Assembly (NCBI GenBank): GCA_963838115.1
Contig: CAWIPU010000002.1
Span: 203,642 to 267,641, forward strand
Length of the DNA stretch: 64,000 nucleotides
Direction: 5' to 3'
From: an uncultured Chloroflexia bacterium
GTDB lineage: Bacteria > Chloroflexota > Limnocylindria > Limnocylindrales > CSP1-4
Both the position numbers and the translations under genes were made by a program. The notes beneath the pieces were generated by a model that did not search any database, was not told the DNA's origin, and was given only the letters and a program-made list of their open reading frames with translations. Below, piece after piece: positions 11,189-64,000 of the stretch; position 1 is the stretch's first letter; each line of letters opens with the position of its first letter.

Positions 11189-11307
11189 CCGGCTCGTCGG
11201 CCGGGAGCGGACGGCCGCGTCATCCGTTGATCGTGCCAACTTGTATCGGACCGTCGGGGGGACTTCAGCAACCATCCTTGGCGCACGCGTCTGGCGCGCC
11301 ATGTTGA

Positions 11308-11565: not shown

Positions 11566-11621
11566 TCGGTCAGGCACACAAGGCTACGCAGTGGCGGAGC
11601 GCCGAAGAGCTCAGGGCTGGC

Positions 11622-13733: not shown

Positions 13734-13771
13734 CGTCCAAGAGAAAAGAAGCAACACCACGGGAGGGACAG

Positions 13772-14539: not shown

Positions 14540-14558
14540 GTCGACGAGGAGGATGACG

Positions 14559-16007: not shown

Positions 16008-16020
16008 CGTCGGTCGATCT

Positions 16021-16064
16021 CCGCGCCCGGCGAAGGGAGCCACCTGGCGCGGGGCGGCGTGGCC
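16021..16064. terminator. GC-rich inverted repeat between convergent ALDH and PHP genes (candidate bidirectional terminator)
   Basis: CCGCGCC ... GGCGCGG arms seen; no T-tract, as is common in high-GC genomes. Confidence 0.25.
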
Positions 16065-16077
16065 GGTCCTGGTCGCC

Positions 16078-16965: not shown

Positions 16966-17009
16966 TTCGCCATCATGGACCGGGCGACGCGAATGCGCTG
17001 CGCCAGTCG

Positions 17010-18086
17010 TCAGGCAGCGGTCGCGAAGACAGGCAGCTGCAGGAAGGTGACGGCCACGGCAGTGCCAGGACCCAGACCGCTGGCCTCCTGCGCAGAGGTT
17101 TGCGCCACGACGAGGGTCCCATCTTCGGTGGTCACCTGGACCCGACAGAGCGAGCCCAGGAAGCTCACCGTAAGCACCCGCGCCTTCGCGTCCTCGTCGG
17201 ACATGAGCTTGACGGCCTCCGGCCGCACGAGCGCCGTCACCGGCCCACGCTCCGCCGATCCTTCGAGCAATGGCACCGTCGAGCCGAGCACATCCACCAC
17301 TCCGTCATGTGCGATCCCTGGCAGGCGATTCGTCAGGCCCACGAATTCGGCCACGAACGCGGTTCGCGGGCGGTCATAGAGTTCGGCAGGCGGAGCGATC
17401 TGCTCAAGCCGACCTGCGGACATGACGCCGACCCGGTCACCGAGCGCGAGCGCCTCCTCCTGATCATGTGTCACGAACAGCGTCGTCGTGCCGACCATGA
17501 GCTGGATCCTTCGGATCTCCTCCCGCAGCAGGCGCCGCACCTTCGCATCGAGGGCCGATAGCGGCTCGTCGAGGAGCAGGACCTTGGGGCGGATGGCGAG
17601 CGCTCGCGCCAGGGCGACGCGCTGTTGCTGCCCACCCGAGAGCTGGTGCGGATAGTGCGCGGCGTGACGACCGAGTCCGACCAGGTCGAGCAGTTCATCC
17701 ACGCTTCGCTTGCGCTCTGCCGCGCCTGTCCCGCGGAGGCGCAACCCGTAGGCCACATTGTCGTGGGCAGTCATGTTCGGGAACAGGCTGTAGGCCTGGA
17801 AGACGACGCCCATATCCCGGTGGTTGGCAGGCATGTCGGTGATGTCACGACCATCGACGACGACGCGGCCCGAGTCCGGGTCGTCGAGACCGGCGAGCGA
17901 GCGGAGCGCGGTCGTCTTCCCACAGCCCGACGGCCCCAGGAGCGCCACCAACTCGCCCGGTGCGATGTCCAGCGTCAGGCCATCGAGCGCACGGACCCGC
18001 CCGTAATGCCGGTGCAGGTCGACCAGTCGGACGGCCACGCCTGCGCGCCCGGCCTTCGTGTCAGCGAGGGTGGTTGCCGGCGTCAC
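17010..18086 (-). CDS. ABC transporter ATP-binding protein (PotA/FbpC-like, C-terminal TOBE domain)
   Basis: Walker A GPSGCGKTT, signature LSGGQQQRVALARAL, Walker B LLLDEPLSALD. Confidence 0.85.
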   Translation of the reverse strand: MTPATTLADTKAGRAGVAVRLVDLHRHYGRVRALDGLTLDIAPGELVALLGPSGCGKTTALRSLAGLDDPDSGRVVVDGRDITDMPANHRDMGVVFQAYSLFPNMTAHDNVAYGLRLRGTGAAERKRSVDELLDLVGLGRHAAHYPHQLSGGQQQRVALARALAIRPKVLLLDEPLSALDAKVRRLLREEIRRIQLMVGTTTLFVTHDQEEALALGDRVGVMSAGRLEQIAPPAELYDRPRTAFVAEFVGLTNRLPGIAHDGVVDVLGSTVPLLEGSAERGPVTALVRPEAVKLMSDEDAKARVLTVSFLGSLCRVQVTTEDGTLVVAQTSAQEASGLGPGTAVAVTFLQLPVFATAA

Positions 18087-18859
18087 GATAGGTCATCCGT
18101 GGTGATCTCCTTGGCCCCGCGACGACCGGTCGGTGTCAGGCTCGCGATGGCGAGGATAAGGAAGAATGCGAAGACGAGTGCACCGAGCGCGACCGCCACG
18201 GCGACGAACGCGTCTCGCTTGCCCAGCAGGTTGATGACGACCTGGACGGTGTGGTAGTTGAGCAATGAGCTGATGGTGAACTCACCGAGCACGAGCGCGA
18301 CGCTGATGACCGCCGCGGAGAGGATGGCGCCACGGATGTTGGGCACGATGATCTGGGCGATGATGCGCGGCCATCCGGCCCCAAGGCTGCGCGCGGCCTC
18401 CGCGAGCGTGGCGACATCGATGGCACGGAGGCCGGCATCGATGGCGCGATGGACGAACGGCAGCACCAGGATGATGTCGATGAGGACGAGCGCCAGCGGC
18501 GATCCCGTGACGTTCCTGCGGATGATCCCATAGATGGGTGCGATGCCCACCACGAGCACGATGGCGGGGATGGCCAGCGGCAACAGGCAGAGGAACTCGA
18601 TGGGCCGCTTCACTCGCGGGACCTTCAAGTAGGCCCAAGCCATCGTCGGAACGAGCAGCAGGAGCACGCCGGACACGGTCATCGCAGCGATCTGGAGCGA
18701 GACGATGATGGAGTCGATGAGGTTCTGGTCCTGGCCGATCGCCAGCCACGGGTCCAGCGTGCGTCTTCCACCCGGACCTCGGGTCGAGAAGTCGAGCATC
18801 GCCACGAGCGGCAGCAACAGGTAGCCACCAACGAGCACGAAGATGCTCCATCGCGCCAT
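18083..18859 (-). CDS. ABC transporter permease (PotC-like)
   Basis: polytopic; EAA-loop-like AEAARSLGAGWPRII; start could instead be 18904, overlapping the upstream permease. Confidence 0.75.
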   Translation of the reverse strand: MARWSIFVLVGGYLLLPLVAMLDFSTRGPGGRRTLDPWLAIGQDQNLIDSIIVSLQIAAMTVSGVLLLLVPTMAWAYLKVPRVKRPIEFLCLLPLAIPAIVLVVGIAPIYGIIRRNVTGSPLALVLIDIILVLPFVHRAIDAGLRAIDVATLAEAARSLGAGWPRIIAQIIVPNIRGAILSAAVISVALVLGEFTISSLLNYHTVQVVINLLGKRDAFVAVAVALGALVFAFFLILAIASLTPTGRRGAKEITTDDLS

Positions 18860-18891
18860 CGTGCGCCCCTGAGGTCGCCTCCGGGCGCCGG

Positions 18892-19824
18892 TCACTGGAC
18901 CCACCGTGAAGCGCGCCGCTGGACGAGCGCATACAGGATCATGACGATGGCCACCACGACGATCATCCCCAGTGCCAGCGCCTTGCCCACGTTCGCCTGC
19001 CCCAGGACCACTTCACTCGTCAGAGCGCCGCGGATCCGCAACGGCACGATGGGGCTGCCCTGGCTCACCAGCGCCGCCGCGGTCGCGTAGGCGGAGAAAG
19101 CATTCGCGAAGAGCAATAGCAGGGATCCAAGAAAGCTCGGGGCGAGGATCGGCCCACCGACGTGGCGCCAGTATCGCCACTCGGATCCCCCCAGAGTCTT
19201 GGACGCTTCCCACCATTCCCGGCGCAGTCCGTCGAGCGCGGGCAGGAAGATGATGACCATGAGGGGGATCTGGAAGTACGTGTACACGACCGCAAGGCCA
19301 GTCATCCCGTAGATCCATTGGCCTCCCAGGACGTCCAGGCCGACCACCTCACGCATGAACATCGTGGCGATGCCGTTGAAGCCGAAGGTGGCCAGGAAGG
19401 CAAATGCCAGCATGACGCCGCCGAACTGCGCCATGACCGCGCAGGCTGAGATGACGTTGCGTCGAAGCCAGCTGCCAGGTTCGGAGTCGACCAACGCCCA
19501 GGCGAGAAGGCCCCCCAACGTGGCGCCGATGATGGCCGTCTCGGCCGAGAGGGTGATGGAGCGGACGAACGCGTCGCGGAGCGTCTGGCCCCTGAGGACC
19601 GTGATGATGTTCTGCAGCGTCGGTGTACCGTCGTCCGCCTGGAATGCCCCGATGACGACGATCGCCGTCGGGACAAGCATGAAGAGCGTGACGTACGTGA
19701 CGAACGGGACGACCGCAAGATAGTCGCGAATGCGACGCAATCGAAGGGAGCCGGCCCCACGTGGCGTGGGGCCGGCTCCCTCGGCGTCATTCGAGCCGGG
19801 CCTGGCCGCTGCGACCTCGGTCAC
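18892..19824 (-). CDS. ABC transporter permease (PotB-like)
   Basis: polytopic; EAA loop WEASKTLGGSEWRYWRHV. Confidence 0.8.
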   Translation of the reverse strand: MTEVAAARPGSNDAEGAGPTPRGAGSLRLRRIRDYLAVVPFVTYVTLFMLVPTAIVVIGAFQADDGTPTLQNIITVLRGQTLRDAFVRSITLSAETAIIGATLGGLLAWALVDSEPGSWLRRNVISACAVMAQFGGVMLAFAFLATFGFNGIATMFMREVVGLDVLGGQWIYGMTGLAVVYTYFQIPLMVIIFLPALDGLRREWWEASKTLGGSEWRYWRHVGGPILAPSFLGSLLLLFANAFSAYATAAALVSQGSPIVPLRIRGALTSEVVLGQANVGKALALGMIVVVAIVMILYALVQRRASRWVQ

Positions 19825-19840
19825 CGTTCGAACGGCTCCG

Positions 19841-20956
19841 CTACTCGATGGTGATGTCCCAGTTGGCGGTCAGGTACTCCTGGGCCGCAGCGATCTGCTC
19901 CTGGGTCAACTGGACGGGCGTGCCCGAGACGGTCGCGAGCATGTCGAGCGCCTCCTGGTCGACCGTCCCGTCAGCGATGAGCTTGTCCTGCAAGACAGGA
20001 CGTGCGAAACCTCTGAGCCAGATGTTCTGCCCCTCGGGCGAGTAGATGTACTCCTGCCAAAGACGCGCCGCAGCGGGGTGCGGTGCGTCCTTGTTGATGG
20101 CCTGGATGTAGAAGGAGGCCACCGGCGGGGCATCGCTTGGGATGGTGACCTGCCAATCGACCTGGCCTTCCAGCGCACTCGTCTGGGCAGCATTCGTGTA
20201 TTCCCAGTCGATGACACACGGCGTCTGGCCGGATGCGATCGTCGCGGGGCTTGGATCGACAGGCAGAAGGTTGCCCGCATCGTTGAGTTGCTTGAAGAAG
20301 TCGACACCCGGGGCGATGTCGTCAGCAGAGCCGCCGTTCGCGAGGGATGCCATGACCACGCCGTTGAAGCCCGCGCCTGCGGTCGTGGGGTTGCCGTTCA
20401 GCGCGACCGCACCTGCGTACTCAGGCTTCAGGAGGTCGGCCACGGTCGTCGGCAGGGCCACCCGCCCAACGTCGCAGCCGATCGACATGAATCCCGTGTA
20501 GTCGCTGACCCACAGGCCGCTCGCATCCTTTAGGTTGTCGGGGATATCTGCCCATGCGGCAGTCATGTATGGAGCGTAGAGGTCGGTGTTCGCGTACGCG
20601 ATGGTCTGACCCAGGTCCAGGACGTCTGGAGCGGCGTCAGTGCCCGCCAGATTGTTGACGGCGTCGATCTCTTGCTGGCTGTTGGCGTCCGGCTGGTCCG
20701 ACTGCACGGTGATGCCGTACTTGGCCCCGAAGGCATCGATCATCTCGCCGTAGTTCGCCCAGTCGGGCGGTAGTGCGATGACGTTGAGCGTCCCCTCCGC
20801 CTGCGCGGCGGCCACGAGGCCATCCATGCCCCCGAAGTCATCGGCTGAAGTCGCCGTCGCGCTGTCGGTCTGAGCGAAGGCTGGACTGACGGCTGCGACC
20901 ACGAGAACGGATGTCGCGGCCACCATCCCGAGGGCGCGAGTTCTTTTCCACTCCAT
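19841..20956 (-). CDS. ABC transporter substrate-binding protein (PotD/PotF-like family)
   Basis: signal peptide MEWKRTRALGMVAATSVLVVAAVSPAFA; AGGAGGA RBS; first gene of the SBP-permease-permease-ATPase-PHP operon. Confidence 0.8.
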   Translation of the reverse strand: MEWKRTRALGMVAATSVLVVAAVSPAFAQTDSATATSADDFGGMDGLVAAAQAEGTLNVIALPPDWANYGEMIDAFGAKYGITVQSDQPDANSQQEIDAVNNLAGTDAAPDVLDLGQTIAYANTDLYAPYMTAAWADIPDNLKDASGLWVSDYTGFMSIGCDVGRVALPTTVADLLKPEYAGAVALNGNPTTAGAGFNGVVMASLANGGSADDIAPGVDFFKQLNDAGNLLPVDPSPATIASGQTPCVIDWEYTNAAQTSALEGQVDWQVTIPSDAPPVASFYIQAINKDAPHPAAARLWQEYIYSPEGQNIWLRGFARPVLQDKLIADGTVDQEALDMLATVSGTPVQLTQEQIAAAQEYLTANWDITIE

Positions 20957-51801: not shown

Positions 51802-53000
51802 TCATTCGTAGCGAAGCGCCGTGACGGGATCGAGCCGCGCGGCGTGGAGTGCGGGCACGAAGCCGGCGAGGGCGCCCAGGATGGTCGCCGAAGGCGACGG
51901 CGGTGATGGCGGTGCATGAGCGTCAGCTCGAAGAGCACCGTGCCCGACGACGTCCGGCCTCGTTGCGCGAGCACGCACGACCAGCGACGCCCGAGGGCCA
52001 GGCCGATCGACGCCGCCGATGAAGCCGATGAGGGCCGACTCGGTCACGAGCTCGCGCACGATGCGGGAGCGACTGCCGCCGATGGCTCGCTTAATGCCTA
52101 TCTCGCGCGTGCGCTCGGCGATCGACATGGCCATCGTGTTGATGACCGACAGGCCGCCGACGACGAGGCTGATGAGCGCGATACCGACGAGGATGGCGTT
52201 GAGGATGCGAGGTGGCCGAGCCGATCTGCTGGTCGAAGTCCGTGCCGGTCATCGTCGTCACGTTCGGGATCTGCGCTCTCGATGCGCTCGGCGACGCCTC
52301 CGACGTCGACGCCGGGCTCGAGGTAGACGACCATCGACGTGGCCAGGTCGGCTGCCGTGATGGATGGACTGGAACATGGGCGGGAGCGTGTGGACGAACA
52401 GCCGCTGGGCGGCCGCGAAGCGGGACCATCGCTGCCTGGTCGGGTGCGGTCAGGGTTGGCTCGAGGACGCCGACGACCGTAGAAGCGAATCGCCCTTGTA
52501 GCGTGATGGTGTCGCCGACGGGCTTGTCGAACTTGCGCGCGATGTCCGAGCCGAGGACGGTGACGTTGCTGCGCCTCGTCGGCTGCGGTCAGGCCGCGGC
52601 CAGAGGCGTAGCGGAGGGGGAAGGTGTCGAGGCCCTCGGTCCGAGCCGGCGACGGGGCCGGTGATGATCGGCGGCACGCCCATGGTGACCGATGCCGGCC
52701 TGGTCGTCCATGAGCATCATCACCGCGGGCGCGACGGCCGCGACACCGGCGATCTGCCGGACGCAGATCGGCGGTCGCGAGCGACATCGGGCGCGGACGA
52801 GAAGCCGCCCATGCGATCCCGACGCAGGCCCGGAACCTGGGAATCGACCGATGTCCGCGCCCGAGACGCTGGCGCGGGGCTCGCATCCCTTGCGCTCGTG
52901 CCGCATACTTACGGTCGCCATGGCAAAGGCCGCGCAGAAAAGGGCTTGCCCCGGTCGCCGGGGATCGCAGGGGTCCTCCCGGCACGCTTGGCCCTGCCTC
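51802..53000 (-). pseudogene. FtsX/DevC/MacB-like ABC permease, degraded (upstream end approximate)
   Basis: C-terminus MSIAERTREIGIKRAIGGSRSRIVRELVTESALIGFIGG...ILGALAGFVPALHAARLDPVTALRYE with a garbled middle; periplasmic-domain pieces (ITAADLATSMVVYLEPGVDVGGVAERI; ...KGDSLLRSSASS) in other frames. Confidence 0.4.
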
Positions 53001-54845
53001 GTGTTGGTGCTCTCCGTCCTGTTGGCGACCCCTGCCTCCGCGGCTTCGCCCTCGAGTGCGGCCCCCGATGCGACACAAGCCTCGGCTCCACTGATCGACT
53101 TGCCAAGCCCGGACGCTGCCTCGCTCTCGGACACGGTCACCATGCCGGCCGGCGCACGCATCGCCTACGTCGTCGGTGCGGAAGGCGATGAAGCGCGCAT
53201 CCACGTGGTCGCCGCCGACGGATCGGGCGACTCGACAATGGCCGAGGGGACGACACCCCGCTGGTCGCCACTGACGTTCGCCGGCGGAGACGTACTCGCG
53301 TTCGGCTGCATGCCACCGTCCGAGGACGGCCCGCCCAGCTCGATCTGCCTCGATGAACTCGGGTCATGGTGGCACACGACACTCATCGAGGGCGCTTCGC
53401 AACCACGCTGGTCGCCCACAGGCGATGCCATCGCCTTCAGCCGTGCTGGCGGTGGTGCCTGGGTGGCCGACCTCTCCGACTTCCACCCTCGTACCAGCGA
53501 GGAGAACGTCGGGCCCACGACGCAGCTGCCGGGCGGCCGCCCCGAGTGGTCCCCCACCGGCGACCGGCTGCTGGTCGTCGACCGCAGCGAGGTCCCGTCG
53601 CTCTCTACCCTCCGACCCGATGGCACGGACCGGCGGAAGGTGGGCGAAGGAGAGCTCGGGGCGTGGTCGCCGGATGGCCGCCTGGTCGCTGTCGCATCCT
53701 GGGATGGTACGCGCACGACGATCACGGCCACGTCGGTCCTCACGGGCGCTGCGGATGTCCTCGCCACCATCGCGAGCCCGATCGTGGCGATGCGATGGCT
53801 CCCGCGGGATGGGCTGGCCGTGGTCGCCGACCGGTCCGGGTCCGGGACGGGCGACCTCTACGTCATCGAGCTCGACGATGGCTCGGTCCGATCGCTGACC
53901 GCAGGGCTCGCCGTCATTCCCGGCCTGAGCCCTTCGCCCGATGGTGCCTGGCTCGCCTTCGCCGCAGAGGATGAGCAGGGACAGGATGTCTACGTCGCCT
54001 CGCGTGATGGTGGATGGCGGCGCGTGACGACCTCCGGCGATGCCTCGATGCCGGCCTGGGGGACGTTCCGGCCGTCGTTCGAACGAGGTGCCTTCATCCA
54101 ATCCGCGGTCGACCGCCTTCGCGTGCGCTCTCGACCGTGGGTCGGCGAGGACTCCGCCCGATATGAGCCGCTTCTGTCGCAGCGATACGTGCTCAAGGTG
54201 CTCGAAGGACCGGTCGCCGGGTCGGGCTACTGGTGGTACCGCGTCCGGCTGGCAGACTGGGAGGACCTGCAGTTGCGTGATGGCCGGCGCGAGCGGATCC
54301 GCTCGGGGTGGATCGCGGTGGCAGACCGCGACGGGACTGCCTGGGTCGGCCGAGTCGATGTCGATCCCGGTCCGCCCCGCACGCCGATCCGACGAGGCTG
54401 GCCGGCGGTGCGACGAGGCGAGGTCCGTCTGGACGCCAGCCCACCGTCCATCGGAGCAGAACGCACACTCGCGATCGAGGCCACCGTGAGCGGACTTCAG
54501 CCCGGGACTGCCCTCACGCTGGTGGCGGAGGGAGAGTCTCGGATCATCTGGCAGTGCGGTCCCGCGGCGGGCGCGAGTGACGCGACCACGAGGACGGTGA
54601 CCGCCGGATCAGCGCTGGGCTGGTCGGACGTCTCGGTCGGCGCAGACGGGACCGGCACGACGGTCCTGCAGCTCTTGCCTTCGCCGGCCGCCGCGGGCCT
54701 CTGTCCGCCAGGTTCGACAGACAGGATCCCGGTGGCCGCGGACGTCCGCTGGGAGAACCTGCGCGTGCGCGACCCGCTGCACCGGCTGGTCCTATTGCCT
54801 GAGCCGGTCTCGGGCGAGCCGGGTAGAGCGGGTCTGGACGGCTGA
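52920..54845 (+). CDS. secreted TolB-like / WD40-like beta-propeller (PD40) repeat protein
   Basis: signal peptide; PD40-type repeats (PRWSPTGDAIAFS, PEWSPTGDRLLVV, GAWSPDGRLVAV, LSPSPDGAWLAFA); start chosen at MAKAAQKRA. Confidence 0.65.
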   Translation: MAKAAQKRACPGRRGSQGSSRHAWPCLVLVLSVLLATPASAASPSSAAPDATQASAPLIDLPSPDAASLSDTVTMPAGARIAYVVGAEGDEARIHVVAADGSGDSTMAEGTTPRWSPLTFAGGDVLAFGCMPPSEDGPPSSICLDELGSWWHTTLIEGASQPRWSPTGDAIAFSRAGGGAWVADLSDFHPRTSEENVGPTTQLPGGRPEWSPTGDRLLVVDRSEVPSLSTLRPDGTDRRKVGEGELGAWSPDGRLVAVASWDGTRTTITATSVLTGAADVLATIASPIVAMRWLPRDGLAVVADRSGSGTGDLYVIELDDGSVRSLTAGLAVIPGLSPSPDGAWLAFAAEDEQGQDVYVASRDGGWRRVTTSGDASMPAWGTFRPSFERGAFIQSAVDRLRVRSRPWVGEDSARYEPLLSQRYVLKVLEGPVAGSGYWWYRVRLADWEDLQLRDGRRERIRSGWIAVADRDGTAWVGRVDVDPGPPRTPIRRGWPAVRRGEVRLDASPPSIGAERTLAIEATVSGLQPGTALTLVAEGESRIIWQCGPAAGASDATTRTVTAGSALGWSDVSVGADGTGTTVLQLLPSPAAAGLCPPGSTDRIPVAADVRWENLRVRDPLHRLVLLPEPVSGEPGRAGLDG

Positions 54846-54975
54846 GTCAGCGGCGGCGGTGAGGCGGGCGCTGACCCGGGGTACCCCAAGGGCGTTGACG
54901 TGGGCGCCCGGGGACCCCGTAGCGTGTTGCACGCGCGGCCGAGTTTCGCCATTCTGGTCGTGTTGATGCGGAAAC
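54843..54975. repeat. ~120 bp GC-rich structured repeat, copy C (begins at the TolB-like gene stop codon)
   Basis: see copy B; shared start CTGAG(C/T)CAGCG overlaps the stop codon. Confidence 0.7.
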
Positions 54976-54990
54976 CCGGTCGCCCGATGG

Positions 54991-55299
54991 ATGATGGTCG
55001 TGGTGGATGACCTCGAAGCCCTGGCCCGGATGGGCACGGCGCAGCTACCGGCGGTGCTGGTCATCCCGCGCCGCCACTGCCGCGCATGGGGCATCGAGCT
55101 GGAGGGCCGGCCCGTCCCGGGTCGCCCCGTCCCGGGTCGCCCTCTGGTCTGGTGCGAGGCCCACCGCACCGCTGTCGGCGGCCGGCCCGCCGGACGGGTG
55201 TGTCCGGGCTGCGGCGTCCCGCTCGATGGCCGACGCCGTCAGACCGTCGTGTGCAGCGAGCGATGCCGATCGCGCATGAGGCGCAGTCGGATCCGGTAG
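54991..55299 (+). CDS. small zinc-ribbon protein (C-x2-C...C-x3-C) with a GRPVP tandem repeat
   Basis: high GC3; CPGCGVPLDGRRRQTVVCSERCRSRMRR; internal 15-nt tandem repeat encoding GRPVPGRPVPGRP. Confidence 0.4.
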   Translation: MMVVVDDLEALARMGTAQLPAVLVIPRRHCRAWGIELEGRPVPGRPVPGRPLVWCEAHRTAVGGRPAGRVCPGCGVPLDGRRRQTVVCSERCRSRMRRSRIR

Positions 55300-55644
55300 T
55301 GGTCGGGAGCCCCGCGTTCCGGAAATGACGTCTGGACGGTAGGCCCGCCCGTCCCAGCAGGGGGGCCTACCCTGGGGAGAGATGCTGCACGTCCGACCTG
55401 CAGGGGTCAGCCGGGTCGCTACGGACCGCGCTACGGAACCGGCCGTTCCGTGTCCGGATGCCCGACGACGTGGTCGTGCCGAGCCGCCGGCCACCACTCC
55501 GGCGCATCCCGAGGTCGAGCGTAGTACGAGCGGATGGTCGCTCCGTACCGTCGTACGGGGGCCCACCTGACATGGGTCCTGCCATGCTCACGGTACCGAG
55601 CGATCAGATCATCCTCATCGACCCACCGGAAGGAACGCCCCTCC

Positions 55645-56511
55645 ATGCCTGATCGTCGCTCGTCGCTTCGCACTCGATCCCTCGCCGCCTCCATGACGGT
55701 GGTCGTGGCCCTCGCCGGTCTGGCCGTCGCATCCCCGGGGGTCGCGGCAGCAGCCACACCCAAGTGCCTGGGCAAGACGGCCACCGTCGTCGGCACCAAG
55801 AAGTCCGAGGTCATCCGCGGGACCAAGCGCGCCGACGTCATCGTGGCCAAGGGCGGGAACGACACCATCATCGCCGGCGGCGGCAACGACCTCATCTGCG
55901 CCGGTAGCGGAGCCGACGTCGTGCGCGCCGGGGGCGGCCGGGACACGGTGGTCGCCGGGACCGGCGCTGACGTGCTCGTCGGTGCCGCCGGGCCCGACGT
56001 CTTGCGCGGCAACGCCGGGAACGACGTCATCAAGGGCGGCCCCGGTGACGACGCCATCGACGGCGGCCTGGGCTTCGATACCTGCGATCAGGGCCTTGGT
56101 AGCGGCACTATGGTCAACTGCGAGAAGCTCGAGGCGCCGGTCGACCCGCCCGATCCCCCTGCGCCCGTCGCGCGGGCCGATCTGTCGGTGGCCGTAGTGG
56201 GGCCCAAGAAGGCCAGGTCCGGCCCGCTGACCTTCACGGTCCGGGTCAGGAACCTGGGGCCTGATGCGAGCGGCTACGTGCTGGACCTGGCCTACAGCAG
56301 CCGGCGCGCGACATGCACGGCGCCCGACTGGACGGGCAAGCAGACGGAGAGCTCCCTGGGTGCCGGGACGAGCCGCGCGGACGACTACGTCGTCACCTGT
56401 ACGAAGCGACGGAACGGCGCTTCGGTCACGGTGAAGGCCACCGTCGCCGCGAGCATCGCCGATCCGAATACCGCGAACGACGCGGCCTCGGCACGCACTG
56501 GACTGCGCTGA
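55645..56511 (+). CDS. secreted calcium-binding (hemolysin-type repeat) protein with DUF11-like C-terminal domain
   Basis: signal peptide; tandem GGNDTIIAGGGNDLICAGSGADVVRAGGGRDTVVAGTGADVL repeats; C-terminal LSVAVVGPKKARSGPLTFTVRVRNLGPDAS. Confidence 0.65.
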   Translation: MPDRRSSLRTRSLAASMTVVVALAGLAVASPGVAAAATPKCLGKTATVVGTKKSEVIRGTKRADVIVAKGGNDTIIAGGGNDLICAGSGADVVRAGGGRDTVVAGTGADVLVGAAGPDVLRGNAGNDVIKGGPGDDAIDGGLGFDTCDQGLGSGTMVNCEKLEAPVDPPDPPAPVARADLSVAVVGPKKARSGPLTFTVRVRNLGPDASGYVLDLAYSSRRATCTAPDWTGKQTESSLGAGTSRADDYVVTCTKRRNGASVTVKATVAASIADPNTANDAASARTGLR

Positions 56512-57045
56512 GTCCGCGGACCTGAGCCCATATCGGCCCACGGGCGCGAGAGGGCGCCCGTGTGTGGCCGGCTGCACGAGGCCGAGCCGAGCGGCCCGCT
56601 GATCGTAAGGCGGTCGCCCGGCAGGCCACCGACCATCGTGTCGACGCTGAGCAACACCGCGGCGAGTGCGGCGTCGATGCGCCGCTCGCGCTGGGAGCAG
56701 TCGGGTTCGGCGCCCATCACCTCGAGCTCGTCGACCGAGACCTGGTCACCCGTGGGTGAACGGCAGCAGGCGCTCGTGGCAGGCCGTGACGGGCGTGATG
56801 TGGCCCTCGCTGCGGAACTGCACCGTGGGAGCCTCGAGGCGCTCGCTAGTCGTGAAGCCGGGCACGCTCACGACCGTCCAGGGGCGGCAACCTCCGCCCG
56901 TGCGTGCTACGGGTCGAGTCGCCAGAGCTCCCGGCGCTGGAGCGCGCGGAGTGACGTCGTGCTGCGCCCTGGAGGGTGGGCCCTCAGGGAGCCGATGAGA
57001 TGCTCGTGACCGTTTCCCACGTGGCGATCGATTGGCCCTCGGCGA

Positions 57046-57426
57046 TCAGGGAACGACGGCGATAGCCTCGATCGAGAAGAGCAGGTCTCTCGGCAGCCCG
57101 ACGATCGGCGTCGAGCGTGCTGGTGGATCCTTCGGGAAGTACTCGGCATAGAGCCGACCAGCGGTCATGACATCCCCGACGTGTGTGACGAATGTCGTCG
57201 TCTTGACCACATGCTCGAGCCCGCTGCCCGCGATCTCGAGAACTGCCTTCAGGTTCGCGAAGGCCTGGCGCACTTCTGCCTCGAAGCCGCCCTCGGCCGC
57301 TTCGCCTGTCGCAGGGTCGATACCTGGCTGGCCGGCCACGAACAGGAAATCACCGGCCCGGACGACCTGCGAGTACGCTCCTATGGCCTTCGGCAGGGCC
57401 GGATCCGTGATCGGTGCATGGTCCAT
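57046..57426 (-). CDS. RidA family protein (YjgF/TdcF/L-PSP)
   Basis: AIGAYSQVVRAGDFLFVAGQ...VKTTTFVTHVGDVMTAGRLYAEYF...PARSTPIVGLPRDLLFSIEAIAV. Confidence 0.8.
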   Translation of the reverse strand: MDHAPITDPALPKAIGAYSQVVRAGDFLFVAGQPGIDPATGEAAEGGFEAEVRQAFANLKAVLEIAGSGLEHVVKTTTFVTHVGDVMTAGRLYAEYFPKDPPARSTPIVGLPRDLLFSIEAIAVVP

Positions 57427-58245
57427 GGGTCACATCCTTCCTGTGCTGTGGCTCGCTCTGGCTGCTGCGCAGGCAGTCTGCGCGGTCGGAGGGCAGGCGT
57501 CGAGACGGATCCGAGCGAATGGACGGCCCGACCCGGGCGAGGACGACCAAGGAGACGCGAAACTCGAAGGGCCGGGGCGACCGATGCCGGAGGGGAGCAC
57601 GGCACCGGCCGCCCGGGTGGGGAGAAGCGAACGTCAGGCGGCGGCCGCGATCTCGGACTCGTCGGGCATGCCAACGACCTCGTCAGCCTCGTCATAGTCA
57701 TCCGGGCCGGCCGGGTCCATGCCCATGACTTCGGCCTGGGTCTCCAGCGCCTGGCCCGCGGTTTCCGCGGCGTAATCCATCTTACGGCGGCCGCAGAGCC
57801 TCTCGGCCGAGCTGGCCACGATCTCCGTGGCGGCTGATGGCCAACCAGCGGCCCACGCGGCGGCAGCTCGAGGTCCTGCGGGCATAGATCGGGCCGGCTC
57901 CGTCGCGGCTGCGGCGCATGAGCTCGGCACCCACCTTGGCCGGTGATGGCCAGAGAGGTCGGGAGCTATGGCAAGCTAGGCATCCACTAGTAGTCCTCGA
58001 AGGTCTGAGCGAAGGGAGAGCCACGGGTGCCAGGTGCGACGACAGCGGCGCCAGCCGACGTGGATTGGACGGTCACCGTCACCGAACCGCTTCCCGATTG
58101 CCCGAGTGTCGAGGCGTGCTGGGAGAAGCTCGCGACCCAGACGACCTGGGGCGAATGGAGGTCTCCGAGCAAGCTGCGGGGCGCTGACGTCATCACCACG
58201 ATCGTCCCCCCAGCGACGGAACCCCTCAAGGGGGCTGCGGCCGGG

Positions 58246-58662
58246 TCAGGCCGTCGCGGCCAGTCGATCCCATGCCCAGATCACCAGAACGAGGTTGATC
58301 ACCATCGCAGCCACGTAGAGGGGATGGAAGAAGAGTACGACGGCGATGAGACCGAGCGCTCCACCCAACAGCGCGAACAAGGCCCACACATCCTGGACAA
58401 CGGGGACGTCGAGGTAGCCCAAGCCGGCTGCGATGATGAGAACCCCGGAGGCGACCCACAGGAGACCGCCCAGGACCGTCCAAGCGGTTCCCAGATCGAG
58501 TGCGTCCAAGAGCCAGGAGCGCCCGAACGGCCCAGGCCACCAATCGAACCAGGACGGAAGCCGCATGCTGGGGCTGTCGGGTGAGGTGACGCCGCCGACT
58601 CCGATCATGGTCGTGATGATCCCGTGGACGATGATGAAGCCTCCGACGACGAGATGGAGCAT
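58246..58662 (-). CDS. hypothetical membrane protein (4 TM)
   Basis: AAGGAGGA RBS 6 nt upstream of MLHLVVGGFIIVHG; four hydrophobic helices. Confidence 0.55.
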   Translation of the reverse strand: MLHLVVGGFIIVHGIITTMIGVGGVTSPDSPSMRLPSWFDWWPGPFGRSWLLDALDLGTAWTVLGGLLWVASGVLIIAAGLGYLDVPVVQDVWALFALLGGALGLIAVVLFFHPLYVAAMVINLVLVIWAWDRLAATA

Positions 58663-58727
58663 CTCTTCCTCCTTGTTTCGCCTCACCTGGTGGACTCGGC
58701 GCAGGCCCAGGTTGCTGGCTCGGCCTC

Positions 58728-59513
58728 CTATGCGGGTCGATCGGGCCGCAGTTCGGATGGGAGTGCTCGGTCCTCGACCCAAGCTCGCACCATGGCGACG
58801 TGGATATCGGGCGCCACACCCAACCACCCGTGTCCGGCCGACGGCATCATCAGACTCGCGGCATTGGGCATGAGCTCAGCCAGCTGCCGGTTGGACCGCC
58901 GGACATGTGCCAGCTCCTTCTCCCCGGCCACCAGCAGGGTCGGGACCGCCACATGAGCCAGTGCGTCGCCGATCCGCACCTCCTGCGCATCGGAGAAGGC
59001 GCGACGGAACGAACGTGTATCGGCCTGACCGAGCTGCTCGACCAGATCAGCCGTGTCGGTCGGATCCGTGATGCCCAGGCCCCGCGCCACGAGCTTGCCG
59101 ACGAAGGGGCGCCGGATGAACGGGGAGACCAGACTCACCCCGAGCTTCATGAACGGTGCGAGCGGTGAACCTACAGCTGCACACCCGTCGACGACGCAGT
59201 GGTCAAGGAGAGCGGACCGCTGCTCCAACAGCTCGAGGGCGATGGAACCGCCGAGGGAAAGTCCCACGACGTGGGCTCGGCCTGCGGGCAGGCGCTCGAT
59301 GATCCGACCGACCAGGTCGGCCGTCTCGGCCCGACCCGACCAGCGCATCGCGGAACTACGTCCATGTCCGGGTAGATCGGGCGCCAGGCAGTGGTACGTC
59401 GGCAATGCATCCATGTGGCGCTGCCACATGGCACCGGTGTTTCCGACCCCATGGAGGAAGACGATGCTGACCGCATCGGGTGGTCCGGATTCACGAAGCC
59501 AGAGGCCCTCCAT
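58728..59513 (-). CDS. alpha/beta hydrolase
   Basis: IVFLHGVGNTGAMW, nucleophile elbow GLSLGGSIA, C-terminal SAGHGWL. Confidence 0.75.
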   Translation of the reverse strand: MEGLWLRESGPPDAVSIVFLHGVGNTGAMWQRHMDALPTYHCLAPDLPGHGRSSAMRWSGRAETADLVGRIIERLPAGRAHVVGLSLGGSIALELLEQRSALLDHCVVDGCAAVGSPLAPFMKLGVSLVSPFIRRPFVGKLVARGLGITDPTDTADLVEQLGQADTRSFRRAFSDAQEVRIGDALAHVAVPTLLVAGEKELAHVRRSNRQLAELMPNAASLMMPSAGHGWLGVAPDIHVAMVRAWVEDRALPSELRPDRPA

Positions 59514-59780
59514 GCCGGCAGTGATACGTCGGCGCGCCCCGTGCGCATCGTGCCGTCCGGCACGTCGCGAGAGGCCGTCCGTACTTTGGTCCCCTATCGG
59601 ACTCGGCATGTTGGCGACGCGCCGGCCGATGCCGGGAGATCGGCTCGCTGTCACCCGGGGACATCAGGCGGCGACACGCCGAGGCGGAGACGAGATGTGA
59701 CCAGTCGCCCTCCATCTCCGGCTGAAGGGCTGTTCCCTACGGGATAGGTGACGGACCACCATCGTGACGAAGGAGACGCC

Positions 59781-60314
59781 ATGCGCAAGATCATCGTGTT
59801 CACTGCGGCCGTGGGGATAGCCCTCGCCGCCGGACTCGTCGCGTGGAGGCGCGATCCACGCATCGGGTCGGCATTCGTCAACCGCGCGGTCAACCCCAGG
59901 CTCCTGGAGCGTGGCCTCGCCGGTGGCGAACACTCCGAGATCGGTCCGCTCGAGCACATCGGGCGCCGCTCGGGTATCGTCCGTCTCACCCCCGTGCACC
60001 CCGAGCCCACTGCCACCGGCTTCCGCTTCGTCGTACCGCTCGGGTCGCAGTCCGAGTGGGCCAAGAACGTGCTCGCCGCCGGACACTGTCGGATCGGGCT
60101 GCATGAACAGGTCTATGAACTCGCGGCGCCCAGGTTCGTCTCGCCTGCCGAGCTGGAGGACCTGCCGAGGCCACTGCGGGCGTGTATGTCGGCCCTCGGG
60201 TTCCGCTATCTCGTGCTCGAGACCGTCGCGGTCGCGCCGGGCAGGCTCGAAGCGAGGCCGGAGTCCCCTGAGCCAGACGAGGCCGAGCCAATGACTGTCC
60301 TGGTCGGCGCCTGA
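59781..60314 (+). CDS. nitroreductase-family deazaflavin-dependent oxidoreductase (DUF385-like)
   Basis: AAGGAGA RBS; N-terminal TM; GRRSGIVRLTPV...FRFVVPLGSQSEWAKNVLAAGHCRI resembles DUF385. Confidence 0.6.
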   Translation: MRKIIVFTAAVGIALAAGLVAWRRDPRIGSAFVNRAVNPRLLERGLAGGEHSEIGPLEHIGRRSGIVRLTPVHPEPTATGFRFVVPLGSQSEWAKNVLAAGHCRIGLHEQVYELAAPRFVSPAELEDLPRPLRACMSALGFRYLVLETVAVAPGRLEARPESPEPDEAEPMTVLVGA

Positions 60315-60447
60315 TCCTTCCCCCGCGCGGGGGAGCCCCGGAAGTCCGCGGGGGCCCGTCGGGGAGGCGGCGCGAGGACTTCGCGGCGTCGGCCTCCGGT
60401 GCGCCCGACATCCTCGACGGCGCCTTCCGACAGCAGTAGCGGAGCGT

Positions 60448-61227
60448 TCAGTCCGGCTCGGCCAGGCCCTCGGCGCGCAGACGGTCGAGGACGGCCAGCT
60501 CCTGCGCGAAGCGTTTGCCTCGCTTGGCGGCCACGAGCACCGTGTCGTCCCGCCCATGCTCGAGGAAGCGTTCGATCGCGACGCCCATCCCGGTGCCCGA
60601 TACGACCGAGCCCAGTAGTCCCTGCCAGTCCCGATCGAGGATGGCTCGACGGGTGATGACGACCTGGGTCGCGAGGTCACGCCGGATGAGCCGGGCGGGG
60701 ATGTCGGAGCGGACGAAGCTGACCGAGGTGAAGCGTGCGTCCGAGATGTCGAGGGCCCAGTCCACGTCGGCGTAGAAGCGCTCGTTGGCCACGAGTAACG
60801 CACCCCGCTCGGAGGCGGGCTGGATCAGCCCAGCCGCAAGGAACTCGAGGCCGCCGGTGACGTTGCCGCGGATGGTCACGTGCCGGAGGGCACAGCCCGT
60901 GATCATCTGCGGTCCCCAGCTGCCGCGATGGAACCAGATCGTGTCGATCGTGCAGTCCTCGGCGATGATGGCCCCGATGTCGGAGGCCGAGACGTGACAG
61001 CGGACGAGCGAGACGCGTCGCACGGTCGGGCGCTCCAACGCGGTCCGCTGGAGCGGCTGTTGACAGGTCTCGAACCGGCAACGTCGGAGCTGCACATCCT
61101 CGAGCGGATCGGGCAGCCGGTACGGATGGACCGAGAACACCCGGTCCTCGATGAGCGACGTCACGGCGCCGATGGTAGCCCGGTCGTGGCCGCGGCCCGA
61201 TGCGCGATCGCTCTTGATCGACAGCAT
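60448..61227 (-). CDS. hypothetical protein (repetitive Cys/His-containing beta-strand-like segments)
   Basis: balanced composition versus junk alternatives; recurring V..C..H..I/T patterns; start uncertain. Confidence 0.35.
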   Translation of the reverse strand: MLSIKSDRASGRGHDRATIGAVTSLIEDRVFSVHPYRLPDPLEDVQLRRCRFETCQQPLQRTALERPTVRRVSLVRCHVSASDIGAIIAEDCTIDTIWFHRGSWGPQMITGCALRHVTIRGNVTGGLEFLAAGLIQPASERGALLVANERFYADVDWALDISDARFTSVSFVRSDIPARLIRRDLATQVVITRRAILDRDWQGLLGSVVSGTGMGVAIERFLEHGRDDTVLVAAKRGKRFAQELAVLDRLRAEGLAEPD

Positions 61228-61425
61228 GTGTTCGGAAGCGTTCGGAATACCGGGTGACGGGCGCCACAGTCTTTCTGTTCGGCTTCCCGTACAGGCGTGC
61301 GGTGTCGCGCTTGACCGCGGCGACGCGATGGTCGGCAAACCCTGAATGCCCAGCCATCGACGGGGAACCACCCATCCCAAGGTGCCCTCGGGATCCACGG
61401 CGAGCGACGGCCCCGGGACCGGGTC

Positions 61426-62769
61426 TCAGGGCGTGACCGTGACGGTCCCCATCATGGAGGGATGGATGGCGCAGAAGTAGTCGTACGTGCCGGGCTCCCC
61501 GAACGTCTGGGAGAAGGTCTGGCCGCCGTCCAAGGTCCCCGAGTCGAAGGCACCGTCGCGCGCGGTCACGGTGTGGGCGAACGGGTCCCCATTGGTCCAA
61601 TCCACGGTCGTACCGACCGGGACCTCGATGTCTGCCGGCGCGAAGGCCACATCCACCACGGACACTTCGGTGACCCCGGCCACATCGAGCGTGGTTGGGT
61701 CGCCGGCCGCATCTCCGACGTCGTCCGCCGCCACCGGGTCTCGGACCACCACCGTCCCAGACATGGAGGGATGGATTGCGCAGAAGTAGTCGTAGCTGCC
61801 GGGCTCAGAGAAGGTCTGGCTGAACGAGTCCCCGCCCATCAACACGCCGGAGTTGAAGCCCTCGTCGCGGGCGGTCACGGTGTGCGGGATGCTGTCGTCG
61901 TTGGACCACGTCACCGTCGCGCCGGCTTCGACCTCGATGCTGCCAGGTTCGAAGGTGAGATCGACGATCGAGACCGCGGCTGGCGCCGCCACCGTCGGCA
62001 CGGCACTGAGAGCGGACTCCTCTGGGGCCGGCGTCTCGCCCGGCAAGGCGGACTCGATCGGCGCTGGGGACCCGGCAACGGCCGGGGACTCCACAGGGCC
62101 CGGCGACTCGACCACGGCACCCTCGGATGGAGCCGGAGCGTCTCCCACGACGGTGATGGTGCCTTCCATCTCCGGATGGATGGCACAGAAGTAGGGATAG
62201 GTCCCGGGCGCATCGAAGGAGTACTCGAAGGCGGATTCCGCGGGTAGGACCCCGCTGTTGAAGGCACCATCGGTCGAGGTCACCGTGTGGTCGTCGTCAC
62301 CGTCGATGTTCTCCCACGTCACGGTGGCGCCGACGGCGACCTCGAGGGCCGGAGGCTGATATGACTCGTCGATGAGCGTGACGGTGGCTGCCATGGGAGG
62401 CGGACCCCCGTTCGGCTGCTCGTCGATGACGAGCACGGTGCCGAAGTAGGCGGGGTCCTCGTCGTTGCGCTCATCGAGGTAGGGATACTCGCCCGCGACC
62501 ACGAAGGTGGTGCTGAAACGCTCGCCGGGCTGGAGGTTGCCCGAGTCGAACCCGACGGGGCCCTGGCGGGAGCGCATACGATGCCGCTCGCGGTCCTCGT
62601 TCCGCCAGGTGACGACCGTGCCGGTCGAGACCTCCAGCCGCTGCGGCTCGAGCGTGTTGGAGATGATGACCTCCTCGCGGTCCTGACCCAGTGCGATGGT
62701 CGCGGCCGCGAGACTGGCGAGCACGGCCAGGACCATGGCGCCAAGGAGACGTCGATAGGGCGTATGCAT
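61426..62769 (-). CDS. secreted multi-domain cupredoxin (four plastocyanin/pseudoazurin-like type-1 copper domains)
   Basis: signal peptide; four repeats, each with HTVT ... YFCAIHP(S/E)M(x)GT (His, Cys, His, Met ligands); Pro/Ala/Ser/Glu-rich linker between domains 2 and 3. Confidence 0.75.
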   Translation of the reverse strand: MHTPYRRLLGAMVLAVLASLAAATIALGQDREEVIISNTLEPQRLEVSTGTVVTWRNEDRERHRMRSRQGPVGFDSGNLQPGERFSTTFVVAGEYPYLDERNDEDPAYFGTVLVIDEQPNGGPPPMAATVTLIDESYQPPALEVAVGATVTWENIDGDDDHTVTSTDGAFNSGVLPAESAFEYSFDAPGTYPYFCAIHPEMEGTITVVGDAPAPSEGAVVESPGPVESPAVAGSPAPIESALPGETPAPEESALSAVPTVAAPAAVSIVDLTFEPGSIEVEAGATVTWSNDDSIPHTVTARDEGFNSGVLMGGDSFSQTFSEPGSYDYFCAIHPSMSGTVVVRDPVAADDVGDAAGDPTTLDVAGVTEVSVVDVAFAPADIEVPVGTTVDWTNGDPFAHTVTARDGAFDSGTLDGGQTFSQTFGEPGTYDYFCAIHPSMMGTVTVTP

Positions 62770-62873
62770 CGGCGGATTAGACCACAACCCCGGCCTGCAT
62801 CTTCGCGCGACCGCCTGGACGCGGGATGGATGCCTCGTGGATCGGGTCCGCGCCCGGAGGGAACCGGATGCCA

Positions 62874-63524
62874 TCAGAGGTCGCTCTTGGCCTGCGGTGA
62901 GCCTTCTCGGGCGACGAGCAGGGCGGCCTCGACGCGACTGCGGACCTGCAGCTTGCCCAGGATGTTGGTCATGTAGTGCTTGATGGTCTTCTCGGCGAGG
63001 CCCAGCCGCTCACCGACCTCCTGGTTGCTGAGCCCTTCGGCCACGAACTCGAGGACCTCTCGCTCGCGGTCGGTCAGCGCGTCGTACGGCGAGCTGTGCG
63101 GCGTGCGCAGCTCGCGCAGCATGCCCCACGCGAGGGCGGGGGCCACATAGACCTCTCCGGCGTGGACCGAGCGGATGACCGCGGCCAGCTCGGAGGCCCC
63201 GGCACCCTTGAGCACGTATCCGGAGGCGCCGGCCTTCATCGCCTCGAGCAGGTCGTCCTCGTCCTCTGACACCGTGAGCATGACGATGCGCGTCGCCGGG
63301 CAGGCTGCCGCGATCCAGCGGGCGGCGTCGTGCCCGCCACCCGGCATCGCGATGTCGAGCAGCATCACATCGGGAAGCTCCCGGCGCGCGAGTTCCAGTG
63401 CCGTGGCCGCGTCACCAGCGTCGCCCACGATGTCGATACCCTCCTCGCCCTGCAGCGACATCACGACGCCAGCACGGAACATCGGATGGTCGTCGGCGAC
63501 CGCCACCCGGATGGACTCACCCAC
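62874..63524 (-). CDS. response regulator, NarL/FixJ family (REC + LuxR-type HTH)
   Basis: IRVAVADDHPMFR...MLLDIAMPGG, C-terminal LTDREREVLEFVAEGLSNQEVGERLGLAEKTIKHYMTNILGKL; GTG start overlapping the kinase gene end. Confidence 0.8.
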   Translation of the reverse strand: MGESIRVAVADDHPMFRAGVVMSLQGEEGIDIVGDAGDAATALELARRELPDVMLLDIAMPGGGHDAARWIAAACPATRIVMLTVSEDEDDLLEAMKAGASGYVLKGAGASELAAVIRSVHAGEVYVAPALAWGMLRELRTPHSSPYDALTDREREVLEFVAEGLSNQEVGERLGLAEKTIKHYMTNILGKLQVRSRVEAALLVAREGSPQAKSDL

Positions 63525-64000
63525 GAGCTGACGCTCCGTACCGCAGTGGCCACCACACCCGTAGCTCGGTGCCGCCTCCGCGTGAGGCGTGGACCTCGAA
63601 CCAGCCGCCCAGCACTTCCGCTTGCTCACGGATGCCCGCGAGGCCGAGGCCCTCGGTGTCAGCCAATGTCACCGGGTCGAACCCGGCACCATCATCCTGT
63701 ACGACCAGCGACAGGCCTGGGGTCCGGCCATCACCTCGGGTGCCGCGGAGCTCGACCTCGATGCGCTCGCTGTGGCCATGTCGTGTCGCGTTCGAGAGCG
63801 CCTCCTGCAGCGCCCGAAAGAGCGCGATCTTGACGGGCAGGGGCACGTCCGCGGGCGCGGCTTCGGCCGTGAGCTGGACCAGCGTGCCGCTACGGCGCTG
63901 GTGGTCCTGCACGGCACGGGACGCGACCGCCTCGGCGTCCATCGGTGCGAGTTCGGGCAGGCGCAGACCGGCCGCGACGCTGCGCATATCGCTCATCGCC
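63517..64000 (-). CDS. sensor histidine kinase (NarX/DesK-like HisKA_3 type), partial; N-terminus beyond right window edge
   Basis: HATPase_c motifs QEALSNATRHG, DDGAGF, GLGLAGIREQAEVLGG; runs off the window. Confidence 0.75.
   Translation of the reverse strand, partial: AMSDMRSVAAGLRLPELAPMDAEAVASRAVQDHQRRSGTLVQLTAEAAPADVPLPVKIALFRALQEALSNATRHGHSERIEVELRGTRGDGRTPGLSLVVQDDGAGFDPVTLADTEGLGLAGIREQAEVLGGWFEVHASRGGGTELRVWWPLRYGASARG

Follow-up and report, generated by a model that had tools for sequence, protein, structure and literature searches.

A chain of cupredoxin modules behind a cysteine-less head module in an uncultured Limnocylindrales bacterium: a predicted multi-site blue-copper protein and its two-component neighbours

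Blue-copper carriers are textbook single-domain proteins. Amicyanin and the plastocyanin-type cupredoxins (PF00127; PDB 1aac) have one domain with a beta-sandwich fold and four copper ligands, and work with a dedicated partner; amicyanin has a short C-x2-H-x2-M loop, and its partner is methylamine dehydrogenase, encoded in the mau cluster. Auracyanins (Chloroflexus) and halocyanins (haloarchaea) are type-1 carriers that an N-terminal anchor and a tether rich in Pro, Ala and Ser keep at the membrane, where they shuttle electrons between respiratory complexes. In three-domain NirK (PDB 6hbe, 2dv6) and in Nmar_1354, a multicopper oxidase of Nitrosopumilus maritimus (PDB 9cck), a small type-1 domain on a flexible linker is tethered to the catalytic reductase or oxidase. 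CopI is a cupredoxin involved in copper tolerance, for which an NCBIfam model (NF051440) exists. Here we describe a multi-cupredoxin gene of an uncultured bacterium of the Limnocylindrales (Chloroflexota), which lies close to the right edge of a 64,000-nucleotide stretch of DNA (assembly GCA_963838115.1, contig CAWIPU010000002.1, positions 203,642 to 267,641; hereafter, the window). Its product has four cupredoxin-like modules in tandem: a head module without Cys, followed by three modules with predicted type-1 copper sites. A first reading of the letters of this DNA (the original prediction) had described a secreted protein of 447 amino acids with four complete copper modules, encoded directly downstream of a two-component operon.

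Pfam searches found Cupredoxin_1 (PF13473) in four stretches of the protein (7.5e-41; 138.8 bits, cut-off 27) and Copper-bind (PF00127) in three (1.7e-34; 118.6 bits, cut-off 21.2). An AlphaFold2 model built with 30 orthologues has four beta-sandwich modules with a predicted local distance difference test (pLDDT) score of about 88–95, disordered linkers at residues 213–262 and 348–363, and a short junction between modules 1 and 2. In Foldseek searches, the model matched cupredoxin-domain proteins exclusively, and the fold is a Greek-key beta-sandwich; template-modelling (TM) scores for the whole model were about 0.2, i.e., the matches were to single domains only. Thus, the four tandem cupredoxin modules of the original prediction are borne out, both by the domain search and by structure prediction. 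The gene and the parts of its product are:

61426 to 62769, minus strand: multi-cupredoxin gene, 447 codons and a stop codon, intact.
62683 to 62769, minus strand: residues 1–29, a basic N-terminus and a hydrophobic helix of 20 residues, at whose end A-L-G-Q-D is conserved (hydropathy, model and conservation).
62416 to 62682, minus strand: module 1 (D1), residues 30–118, cupredoxin-like and Cys-less, with H63 kept and D99 at the position of the Cys.
62140 to 62394, minus strand: module 2, residues 126–210, with a predicted type-1 site H161/C195/H198/M201 (Pfam, alignment and model).
61984 to 62139, minus strand: 52-residue linker with a high content of Pro, Ala, Glu and Ser, predicted to be disordered and varying in length among orthologues.
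61738 to 61983, minus strand: module 3, residues 263–344, with a predicted type-1 site H296/C330/H333/M336.
61429 to 61680, minus strand: module 4, residues 364–447, with a predicted type-1 site H399/C433/H436/M439.

Alignment of the four modules revealed that modules 2–4 share the amicyanin-type pattern H...C-x2-H-x2-M, and their ligands align residue for residue with His53, Cys92, His95 and Met98 of amicyanin and with the copper site of the Nmar_1354 pendant domain. The ligand loop of module 1 is LDERNDEDPAYFG, which has neither Cys, nor second His, nor Met: only the first His (H63) has been kept, and Asp replaces the Cys. The claim that each of the four modules has a complete His/Cys/His/Met set therefore fails for module 1. 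The entire protein contains three Cys (195, 330 and 433), all of which are ligands of modules 2–4, and eight His, i.e., the six type-1 ligands, H2 and H63. This leaves three predicted type-1 sites and no fourth, and no type-2 or type-3 centre, which rules out a multicopper oxidase; the 447 amino acids include neither His/Met-rich tracts nor additional His of the HxH type that could serve type-2 or trinuclear centres. The mature protein is very acidic (isoelectric point about 4), most of its Arg residues are in module 1, and an invariant acidic run, DGDDD, precedes the His ligand of module 2. Between modules 3 and 4, the identity is 62%.

All 12 ligand residues of modules 2–4 are invariant among the 30 orthologues, and C-x2-H-x2-M has been retained in almost all non-first modules of a set of 229 complete homologues, which implies strong purifying selection on the copper sites. 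Modules 2–4 are thus predicted, from their sequences, to hold three type-1 copper centres. The same invariance makes it highly improbable that the protein has a surface or structural role without redox function, its copper sites being vestigial and the gene having its present neighbours by chance or by inherited synteny, even though the beads-on-a-string layout and the acidic Pro/Ala-rich linkers resemble those of cell-surface proteins and the gene contexts of the family are highly varied.

The individual modules match amicyanin/plastocyanin-type cupredoxins with E-values of 1e-12 to 1e-13. In amicyanin one domain works with its own partner enzyme, whereas here three such modules follow a Cys-less one, and no mau-type genes are present in the window or in L002 (L-numbers denote public contigs and loci of relatives that were compared with the window; L002 is 99.1% identical to window positions 52824–64000 and continues for 8.8 kb further). 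The score against the amicyanin equivalog TIGR02657 was 147 bits, above the cut-off of 110.2, because it is summed over three stretches whose contributions add up, and it does not make the protein an amicyanin; single modules score about 46–51 bits against solved amicyanins. The closest solved relative is the pendant domain of Nmar_1354 (8e-20 and about 45% identity, for module 3), whose type-1 site has been shown crystallographically to be metalated, with His2Cys and axial Met ligation (PMC11761707). Compared with that domain and with three-domain NirK, the small type-1 domain on a flexible linker is shared; the difference is that here the modules are tethered to one another and to D1, rather than to a catalytic oxidase or reductase. 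The auracyanins and halocyanins, with their membrane helix and flexible tethers, offer the favoured functional analogy, and the halocyanin model TIGR03102 gave 106.8 bits, summed over three modules. However, these carriers have one copper site, or at most two, and no Cys-less head, and the auracyanins are azurin-like proteins of about 140 residues with one copper site; of the 42 PDB sequences that matched at E ≤ 1e-3, none is an auracyanin. For the multiplicity of predicted copper sites, no characterised precedent was found.

What could such a protein do? Electron transfer would appear to be its most likely function, and is preferred to copper buffering because the sites are canonical type-1 sites, the closest relatives are electron-transfer domains, the ligands are strictly conserved and there are no extra metal-binding residues. 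A role in copper handling instead, with buffering or detoxification of copper as in CopI and induction by copper stress, would be in keeping with the genomic setting in this strain: beyond the sensor kinase gene that lies upstream, 1.7–4 kb past the window's right edge (L002 3472–6100), there are genes for a CopB-like P1B ATPase (His-rich N-terminus, CPH motif, 566 bits against TIGR01511) and, divergently oriented, a CueR-like MerR protein. CopI itself is a precedent of a copper-tolerance cupredoxin, and resembles the present protein in being extracytoplasmic and in having its gene near copper-homeostasis and two-component genes. However, the ATPase and MerR genes are a feature of this strain only, being absent from beside the module in L004, L005 and all other relatives compared; against the CopI model the protein reaches 22 bits (cut-off 280); its nearest relatives of known structure are domains that serve electron transfer; and a protein with no His/Met-rich region and no spare Cys, His or Met would have a capacity of three Cu per 418 residues. 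We consider a copper-handling role quite improbable.

The architecture is a property not of this strain but of a large family. The protein has 969 matches among 8000 candidates scored, and a search with module 1 alone gave 2777 clusters (50% identity) at E ≤ 1e-3, 425 at E ≤ 1e-10 and 99 at E ≤ 1e-30. The statement that tandem tetra-cupredoxins are uncommon can thus stand for characterised proteins only, and not overall. The closest genomes are metagenome-assembled genomes of uncultured Chloroflexota from Danish soils, in which NCBI gives the adjoining genes the label Limnocylindrales; Acidimicrobiia have longer proteins, of five to seven modules, and there are also matches to single and double modules of ammonia-oxidising archaea. 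The source annotations of homologues are "plastocyanin" or "cupredoxin domain-containing protein", and in the literature on tandem and multi-domain cupredoxins, PF03640 (which enters through a neighbouring gene, below) and Limnocylindria, no paper describing the architecture was found. Although uncharacterised, the family is thus often met with in metagenomes, among soil Chloroflexota (Limnocylindrales-like) and Acidimicrobiia.

The 229 complete homologues, collected by a word-indexed search and an exhaustive search with module 1, were classified by their domains. A Cys-less first module of the D1 type is present in 210 of them (92%), and never occurs later in the chain. Proteins with n modules and n−1 copper sites dominate: 2/1 (17 proteins), 3/2 (50), 4/3 (55), 5/4 (40), 6/5 (33) and 7/6 (6), the extreme being one protein with 10 modules and 8 sites. 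Across the family, D1 is followed by 1 to about 9 copper modules. Among the 30 orthologues, module 1 is the best-conserved part of the protein, and in 95 relatives below 50% identity it retains N57, R62-H63-R64-x-R66, F74-D75, Y97-x-D99 and G110. Being both conserved and obligatory at the N-terminus, D1 must be regarded as a specialised module under selection; the idea that it is a decaying pseudo-module was rejected on these same grounds. Its role may be that of a docking or anchoring unit, rather than of a redox centre.

The number of copper modules differs even between near-identical strains, being 2 or 3. The polymorphism lies at about 61510–61751 of the window and at 10951–11146 of L004, a locus with 93% nucleotide identity over the region, where an intact three-module gene has modules 3 and 4 merged into one; P0017, a protein of 344 amino acids that is 90% identical, has the same three-module layout. 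The change in copy number may well stem from unequal recombination between modules 3 and 4, given their 62% identity.

The length of the protein depends on the choice of start codon. The open reading frame (ORF) as listed runs on the minus strand from 62874 to 61426 (482 codons), and its opening ATG overlaps the stop codon of the upstream regulator gene by one base (TGATG). The true start is almost certainly the internal ATG at 62769, which gives the 447 amino acids of the original prediction, because the position of M-x4-RRLL is the start in most orthologues and the extension of 35 amino acids has not been kept as protein, and because a hydrophobic helix can serve export only if it is N-terminal. 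In the 35 upstream codons, the sole recurring translated string is WSNPPM, which reflects a conserved DNA element. The 482-codon version was rejected accordingly, as its extension is unconserved as protein and would bury the signal helix. Residues 7–30 are hydrophobic by hydropathy, and residues 4–28 are modelled as a helix by AlphaFold2, which suits a Sec-type signal peptide as well as a membrane anchor that stays uncleaved; identification as an exported protein is upheld, with export itself deduced from this helix. Export by the twin-arginine translocation (Tat) pathway was considered and is not indicated, the second Arg being variable among orthologues (RQ, RS, RH, RC).

The two genes directly upstream of the cupredoxin gene, on the same strand, encode a two-component pair:

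62874 to 63524, minus strand: NarL/FixJ-type response regulator, 216 amino acids, Response_reg and GerE domains; its start overlaps the stop of the kinase gene by 8 nucleotides.
63517 to 64000, minus strand: 3′ end of a HisKA_3 sensor kinase gene (HATPase_c, by Pfam), which runs off the window.

The HisKA_3 domain lies outside the window and was seen only on L002; with Response_reg, GerE and HATPase_c in the window, this agrees with the kinase and LuxR-type regulator that had been described next door. In the complete kinase on L002, two transmembrane segments enclose an extracytoplasmic domain, some 150 residues long, which belongs to no recognisable Pfam or NCBIfam family and has no sequence relatives in the PDB. 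Beyond the kinase gene, L002 has a divergent pair of genes, which encode a secreted protein of 135 amino acids (unk135) and a Lipoprotein_15 (PF03640) protein. The former has 3909 homologues, all annotated "hypothetical", and a generic Ig-like sandwich model of modest confidence; for the two proteins, no Pfam or NCBIfam family was found beyond PF03640 and a sub-threshold SCO0930-like match, and no PDB relatives. The Lipoprotein_15 protein bears two CxxxC motifs. L002 also contains frameshifts, which split the cupredoxin gene (10001–11345; 321 and 137 amino acids) and garble the C-terminus of the kinase (8900–9111); these are probably errors of long-read assembly, the copy in the window being intact.

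The pair resembles NarX/NarL in having a Response_reg and GerE regulator, a HisKA_3 and HATPase_c kinase with two transmembrane segments round an outer domain, and a candidate operator in the form of an inverted repeat with a 2-bp spacer, comparable with the 7-2-7 sites of NarL. It differs in failing the equivalog scores (NarL 158.7 bits, cut-off 250; NarX 15.3 bits, cut-off 578), in having a sensor domain without known family, and in its conserved partners, which here are unk135 and Lipoprotein_15.

How constant is this neighbourhood? Clustering of ORFs over 14 Chloroflexota loci gave only five recurring genes: cupredoxin (14 loci), regulator (10), kinase (9), unk135 (9) and Lipoprotein_15 (8); the flanks of these loci are otherwise non-syntenic. 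The cupredoxin gene adjoins the two-component pair in 10 Chloroflexota loci, about half of those examined, in three gene orders. The very closely related window/L002, L004 and L005 are the only ones to have it co-directional with the regulator gene; the two genes are convergent (tail to tail) in L006, L007, L008, L012, L014 and L032. In the third order, at L045, a different, two-domain cupredoxin lies between unk135 and the kinase gene: unk135, cupredoxin, kinase and regulator are all co-directional here (8900–12343), the first domain of the cupredoxin is of another subtype (HGFEM...C..GH...GM), and its gene looks frameshifted in the assembly. A two-component neighbour is absent at L001/L003, L009, L010, L019, L085, L087 and L170, and also at the Acidimicrobiia loci L083 and L084.

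The reverse sampling, via unk135, gave 80 metagenome loci, about 27 of which have a HisKA_3/NarL pair nearby and 2 of which have any cupredoxin, about 5.5 kb away; two long contigs found in this way carry regulator, kinase, unk135 and Lipoprotein_15 genes and no cupredoxin gene. The constant unit is therefore the two-component pair and unk135, usually with Lipoprotein_15, and the cupredoxin gene is a recurrent neighbour of this module, restricted to one lineage. The module with unk135, Lipoprotein_15, kinase and regulator occupies L002 6322–7750 and is orthologous in L004–L008, L012, L014, L032, L088 and L089. Genes for GDT1/UPF0016 (a cation-transporter family) and DsbB recur beside the cupredoxin or Lipoprotein_15 gene in several relatives (L001 11635–12207; L004 5659–6231; L088 9384–10751; L089 9464–10066).

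These distributions bear on the suggestion that the cupredoxin chain is an accessory sensor, which would report copper or the redox state outside the cytoplasm to the kinase, with D1 docking on the 150-residue outer domain. Adjacency in several gene orders, an outer domain without a recognisable ligand-binding family and a conserved, non-redox D1 with a basic patch would all be in keeping with such an arrangement. However, the D1 family is widespread where no such kinase is nearby, including in Acidimicrobiia, and the constant partner of the kinase is unk135 and not the cupredoxin, making an accessory sensor very improbable.

The gene has a conserved element of its own:

62776 to 62785, minus strand: cupredoxin upstream element GTGGTCTAAT, ending 6 nucleotides before the ATG; candidate extended −10 box of a leaderless transcript.

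The consensus of the element, (A/G)TGGT(C/G)TAAT, is found 6–8 nucleotides before the ATG in every Chloroflexota orthologue examined, whatever the neighbouring genes, including six loci without a two-component neighbour; L005 and L012 alone have a weakened form of it. None of the Chloroflexota orthologues examined has a Shine-Dalgarno sequence between element and ATG. An Acidimicrobiia version of the gene is without the element and has a Shine-Dalgarno sequence instead. A −10 box of a leaderless mRNA at such a position is an established layout in Actinobacteria and Deinococcus. By analogy of position, TGGTSTAAT may be the promoter of an independent, leaderless cupredoxin transcript. In the 105-nucleotide gap ahead of the gene, no riboswitch or other RNA element was detected, there being no Rfam family at gathering score anywhere in the window, and a promoter of the extracytoplasmic function (ECF) sigma type (GGAAC...TCTGA) was rejected, for the cupredoxin promoter and for the kinase–unk135 intergenic region, because the spacing is unfit. 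A one-mismatch copy of the element, GTGGTGTAAT, at 4594–4603 of the window (plus strand), is identical to a variant found in L085 and L032 and is probably due to chance, as there is no start codon at the right distance.

The two-component module has a different element. Phylogenetic footprinting of the stretch between the kinase gene and unk135 revealed an invariant palindrome, CGGACC-WW-GGTCCG, forming a perfect 9-2-9 repeat in L008. Each of 11 two-component modules has a single copy, invariably at this place; if one mismatch is allowed, 439 kb contain six further matches, which equals the chance expectation (about six, estimated from base composition). By analogy with the 7-2-7 sites of NarL, the palindrome is likely to be the regulator's operator. 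A TACCAT box is conserved 6–8 nucleotides before the kinase ATG, and at L002 7736–7752 the kinase gene has no Shine-Dalgarno sequence and a TACCAT box 7 nucleotides ahead of the second ATG; the kinase gene may be leaderless too, with a start three codons later than annotated.

Is the cupredoxin gene nevertheless a member of the regulon, its product having the same function and being switched on together with unk135 and Lipoprotein_15 when the kinase senses an envelope, redox or metal signal? That adjacency recurs in 10 Chloroflexota loci, in three arrangements amid non-syntenic flanks, argues for such control, as does a likeness between the two elements: TTGGTCCGAT, a half-site of the operator, agrees at 7 of 10 bases with GTGGTCTAAT, the element of the cupredoxin gene, and in L005 an 11-mer, GGTCTGATGCG, is common to both. 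However, the variant TGGTGTAAT, in L085 and L032, abolishes the GGTC similarity to the operator; the element has been kept where no two-component pair is nearby; and the palindrome is just upstream of no cupredoxin gene, the nearest being about 400 nucleotides upstream (L019), with none there in the window. In addition, the two-component module is common without the cupredoxin, and half of the Chloroflexota cupredoxin loci are without the pair. The notion that the cupredoxin element is an operator half-site, which is weakened by the variants and by the occurrence of the element without the pair, is weakened further by motif counts in the window that are no higher than chance. Membership of the regulon is thus possible, if rather doubtful. 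The gene's own element and the absence of the palindrome lead us to infer that it is transcribed alone, without direct control by the regulator encoded beside it. Its placement in a kinase/regulator operon, as originally predicted, is rather disfavoured by comparison: the genes are convergent in six loci, co-directional only in three near-identical strains, and the cupredoxin gene has its own conserved element. Of the proposed redox- or copper-responsive electron-transfer module, electron transfer is retained as most likely, whereas a responsive circuit is rather disfavoured, and no evidence points to copper, nitrogen oxides or redox state as the signal of the kinase.

Taken together, and with a probability of about one half, we consider the product to be a multi-site blue-copper electron carrier, either exported or tethered to the membrane, and the gene to form a transcription unit of its own, which is a neighbour but not a direct target of the two-component pair. 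The N-terminal hydrophobic helix would export the protein or anchor it in the membrane. D1 would act as a docking or anchoring head, without a redox role, and from it three amicyanin-type modules would hang on flexible acidic Pro/Ala-rich linkers, each carrying one electron, with their number adjustable across the family. The gene would be driven by the TGGTSTAAT element as a leaderless unit, and the NarL-type pair would belong to another module, in which the kinase and regulator genes are divergent from unk135 and Lipoprotein_15. Several observations weigh against this reading. In none of the contexts examined do nearby genes encode a donor or acceptor enzyme: the partner oxidoreductases that were to be looked for past the window's edge are not encoded in the 8.8 kb of L002, nor in the window, nor in seven other annotated contexts. 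The recurrence of the adjacency in three gene orders, amid non-syntenic flanks, hints at a functional tie between cupredoxin and two-component genes. The T(C/G)TAAT hexamer is without the −11 A of the sigma-70 consensus, and a simple scan of 60300–64000 for sigma-70 promoters and intrinsic terminators found none.

The remainder of the window has the genes of an ordinary heterotroph, and no RNA genes. Just downstream of the cupredoxin gene, an ORF at 60448–61398 (minus strand) has a sub-threshold pentapeptide-repeat match (24.9 bits, cut-off 38) and, among the compared loci, is conserved only in L002. At 12315–20956 there are genes for a glutamine-synthetase-like protein, an aldehyde dehydrogenase, a TOBE-domain ABC ATPase and a solute-binding protein, a cluster which resembles a polyamine or gamma-glutamyl catabolism locus.

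For the window alone the outcome is modest, i.e., a generically annotated gene; the architecture at the level of the family is the most useful result. The family rule (a Cys-less head, n−1 sites and polymorphism in copy number) yields concrete constructs for expression. As a side result, the widespread HisKA_3/NarL module with unk135, Lipoprotein_15 and an invariant palindrome is a well-defined regulatory unit. An unlikely extension of the preferred reading is that the chain is a "copper wire", in which D1 would dock on a membrane respiratory complex or a component of the wall, and 1 to about 9 type-1 copper modules, strung on flexible acidic tethers, would relay or store electrons across the thick envelopes of these soil Chloroflexota and Acidimicrobiia. 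If true, this would be a copper-based counterpart of multihaem cytochrome conduits, with reach or capacity tuned by gain and loss of modules. The locus represents a large unstudied family, in which copper modules are chained behind a copper-less head, in abundant uncultured soil bacteria. Should electrons indeed be relayed along these chains, an element of respiration would have been overlooked in Limnocylindrales-like Chloroflexota and in Acidimicrobiia, and multi-centre copper electron transfer would have a natural scaffold.

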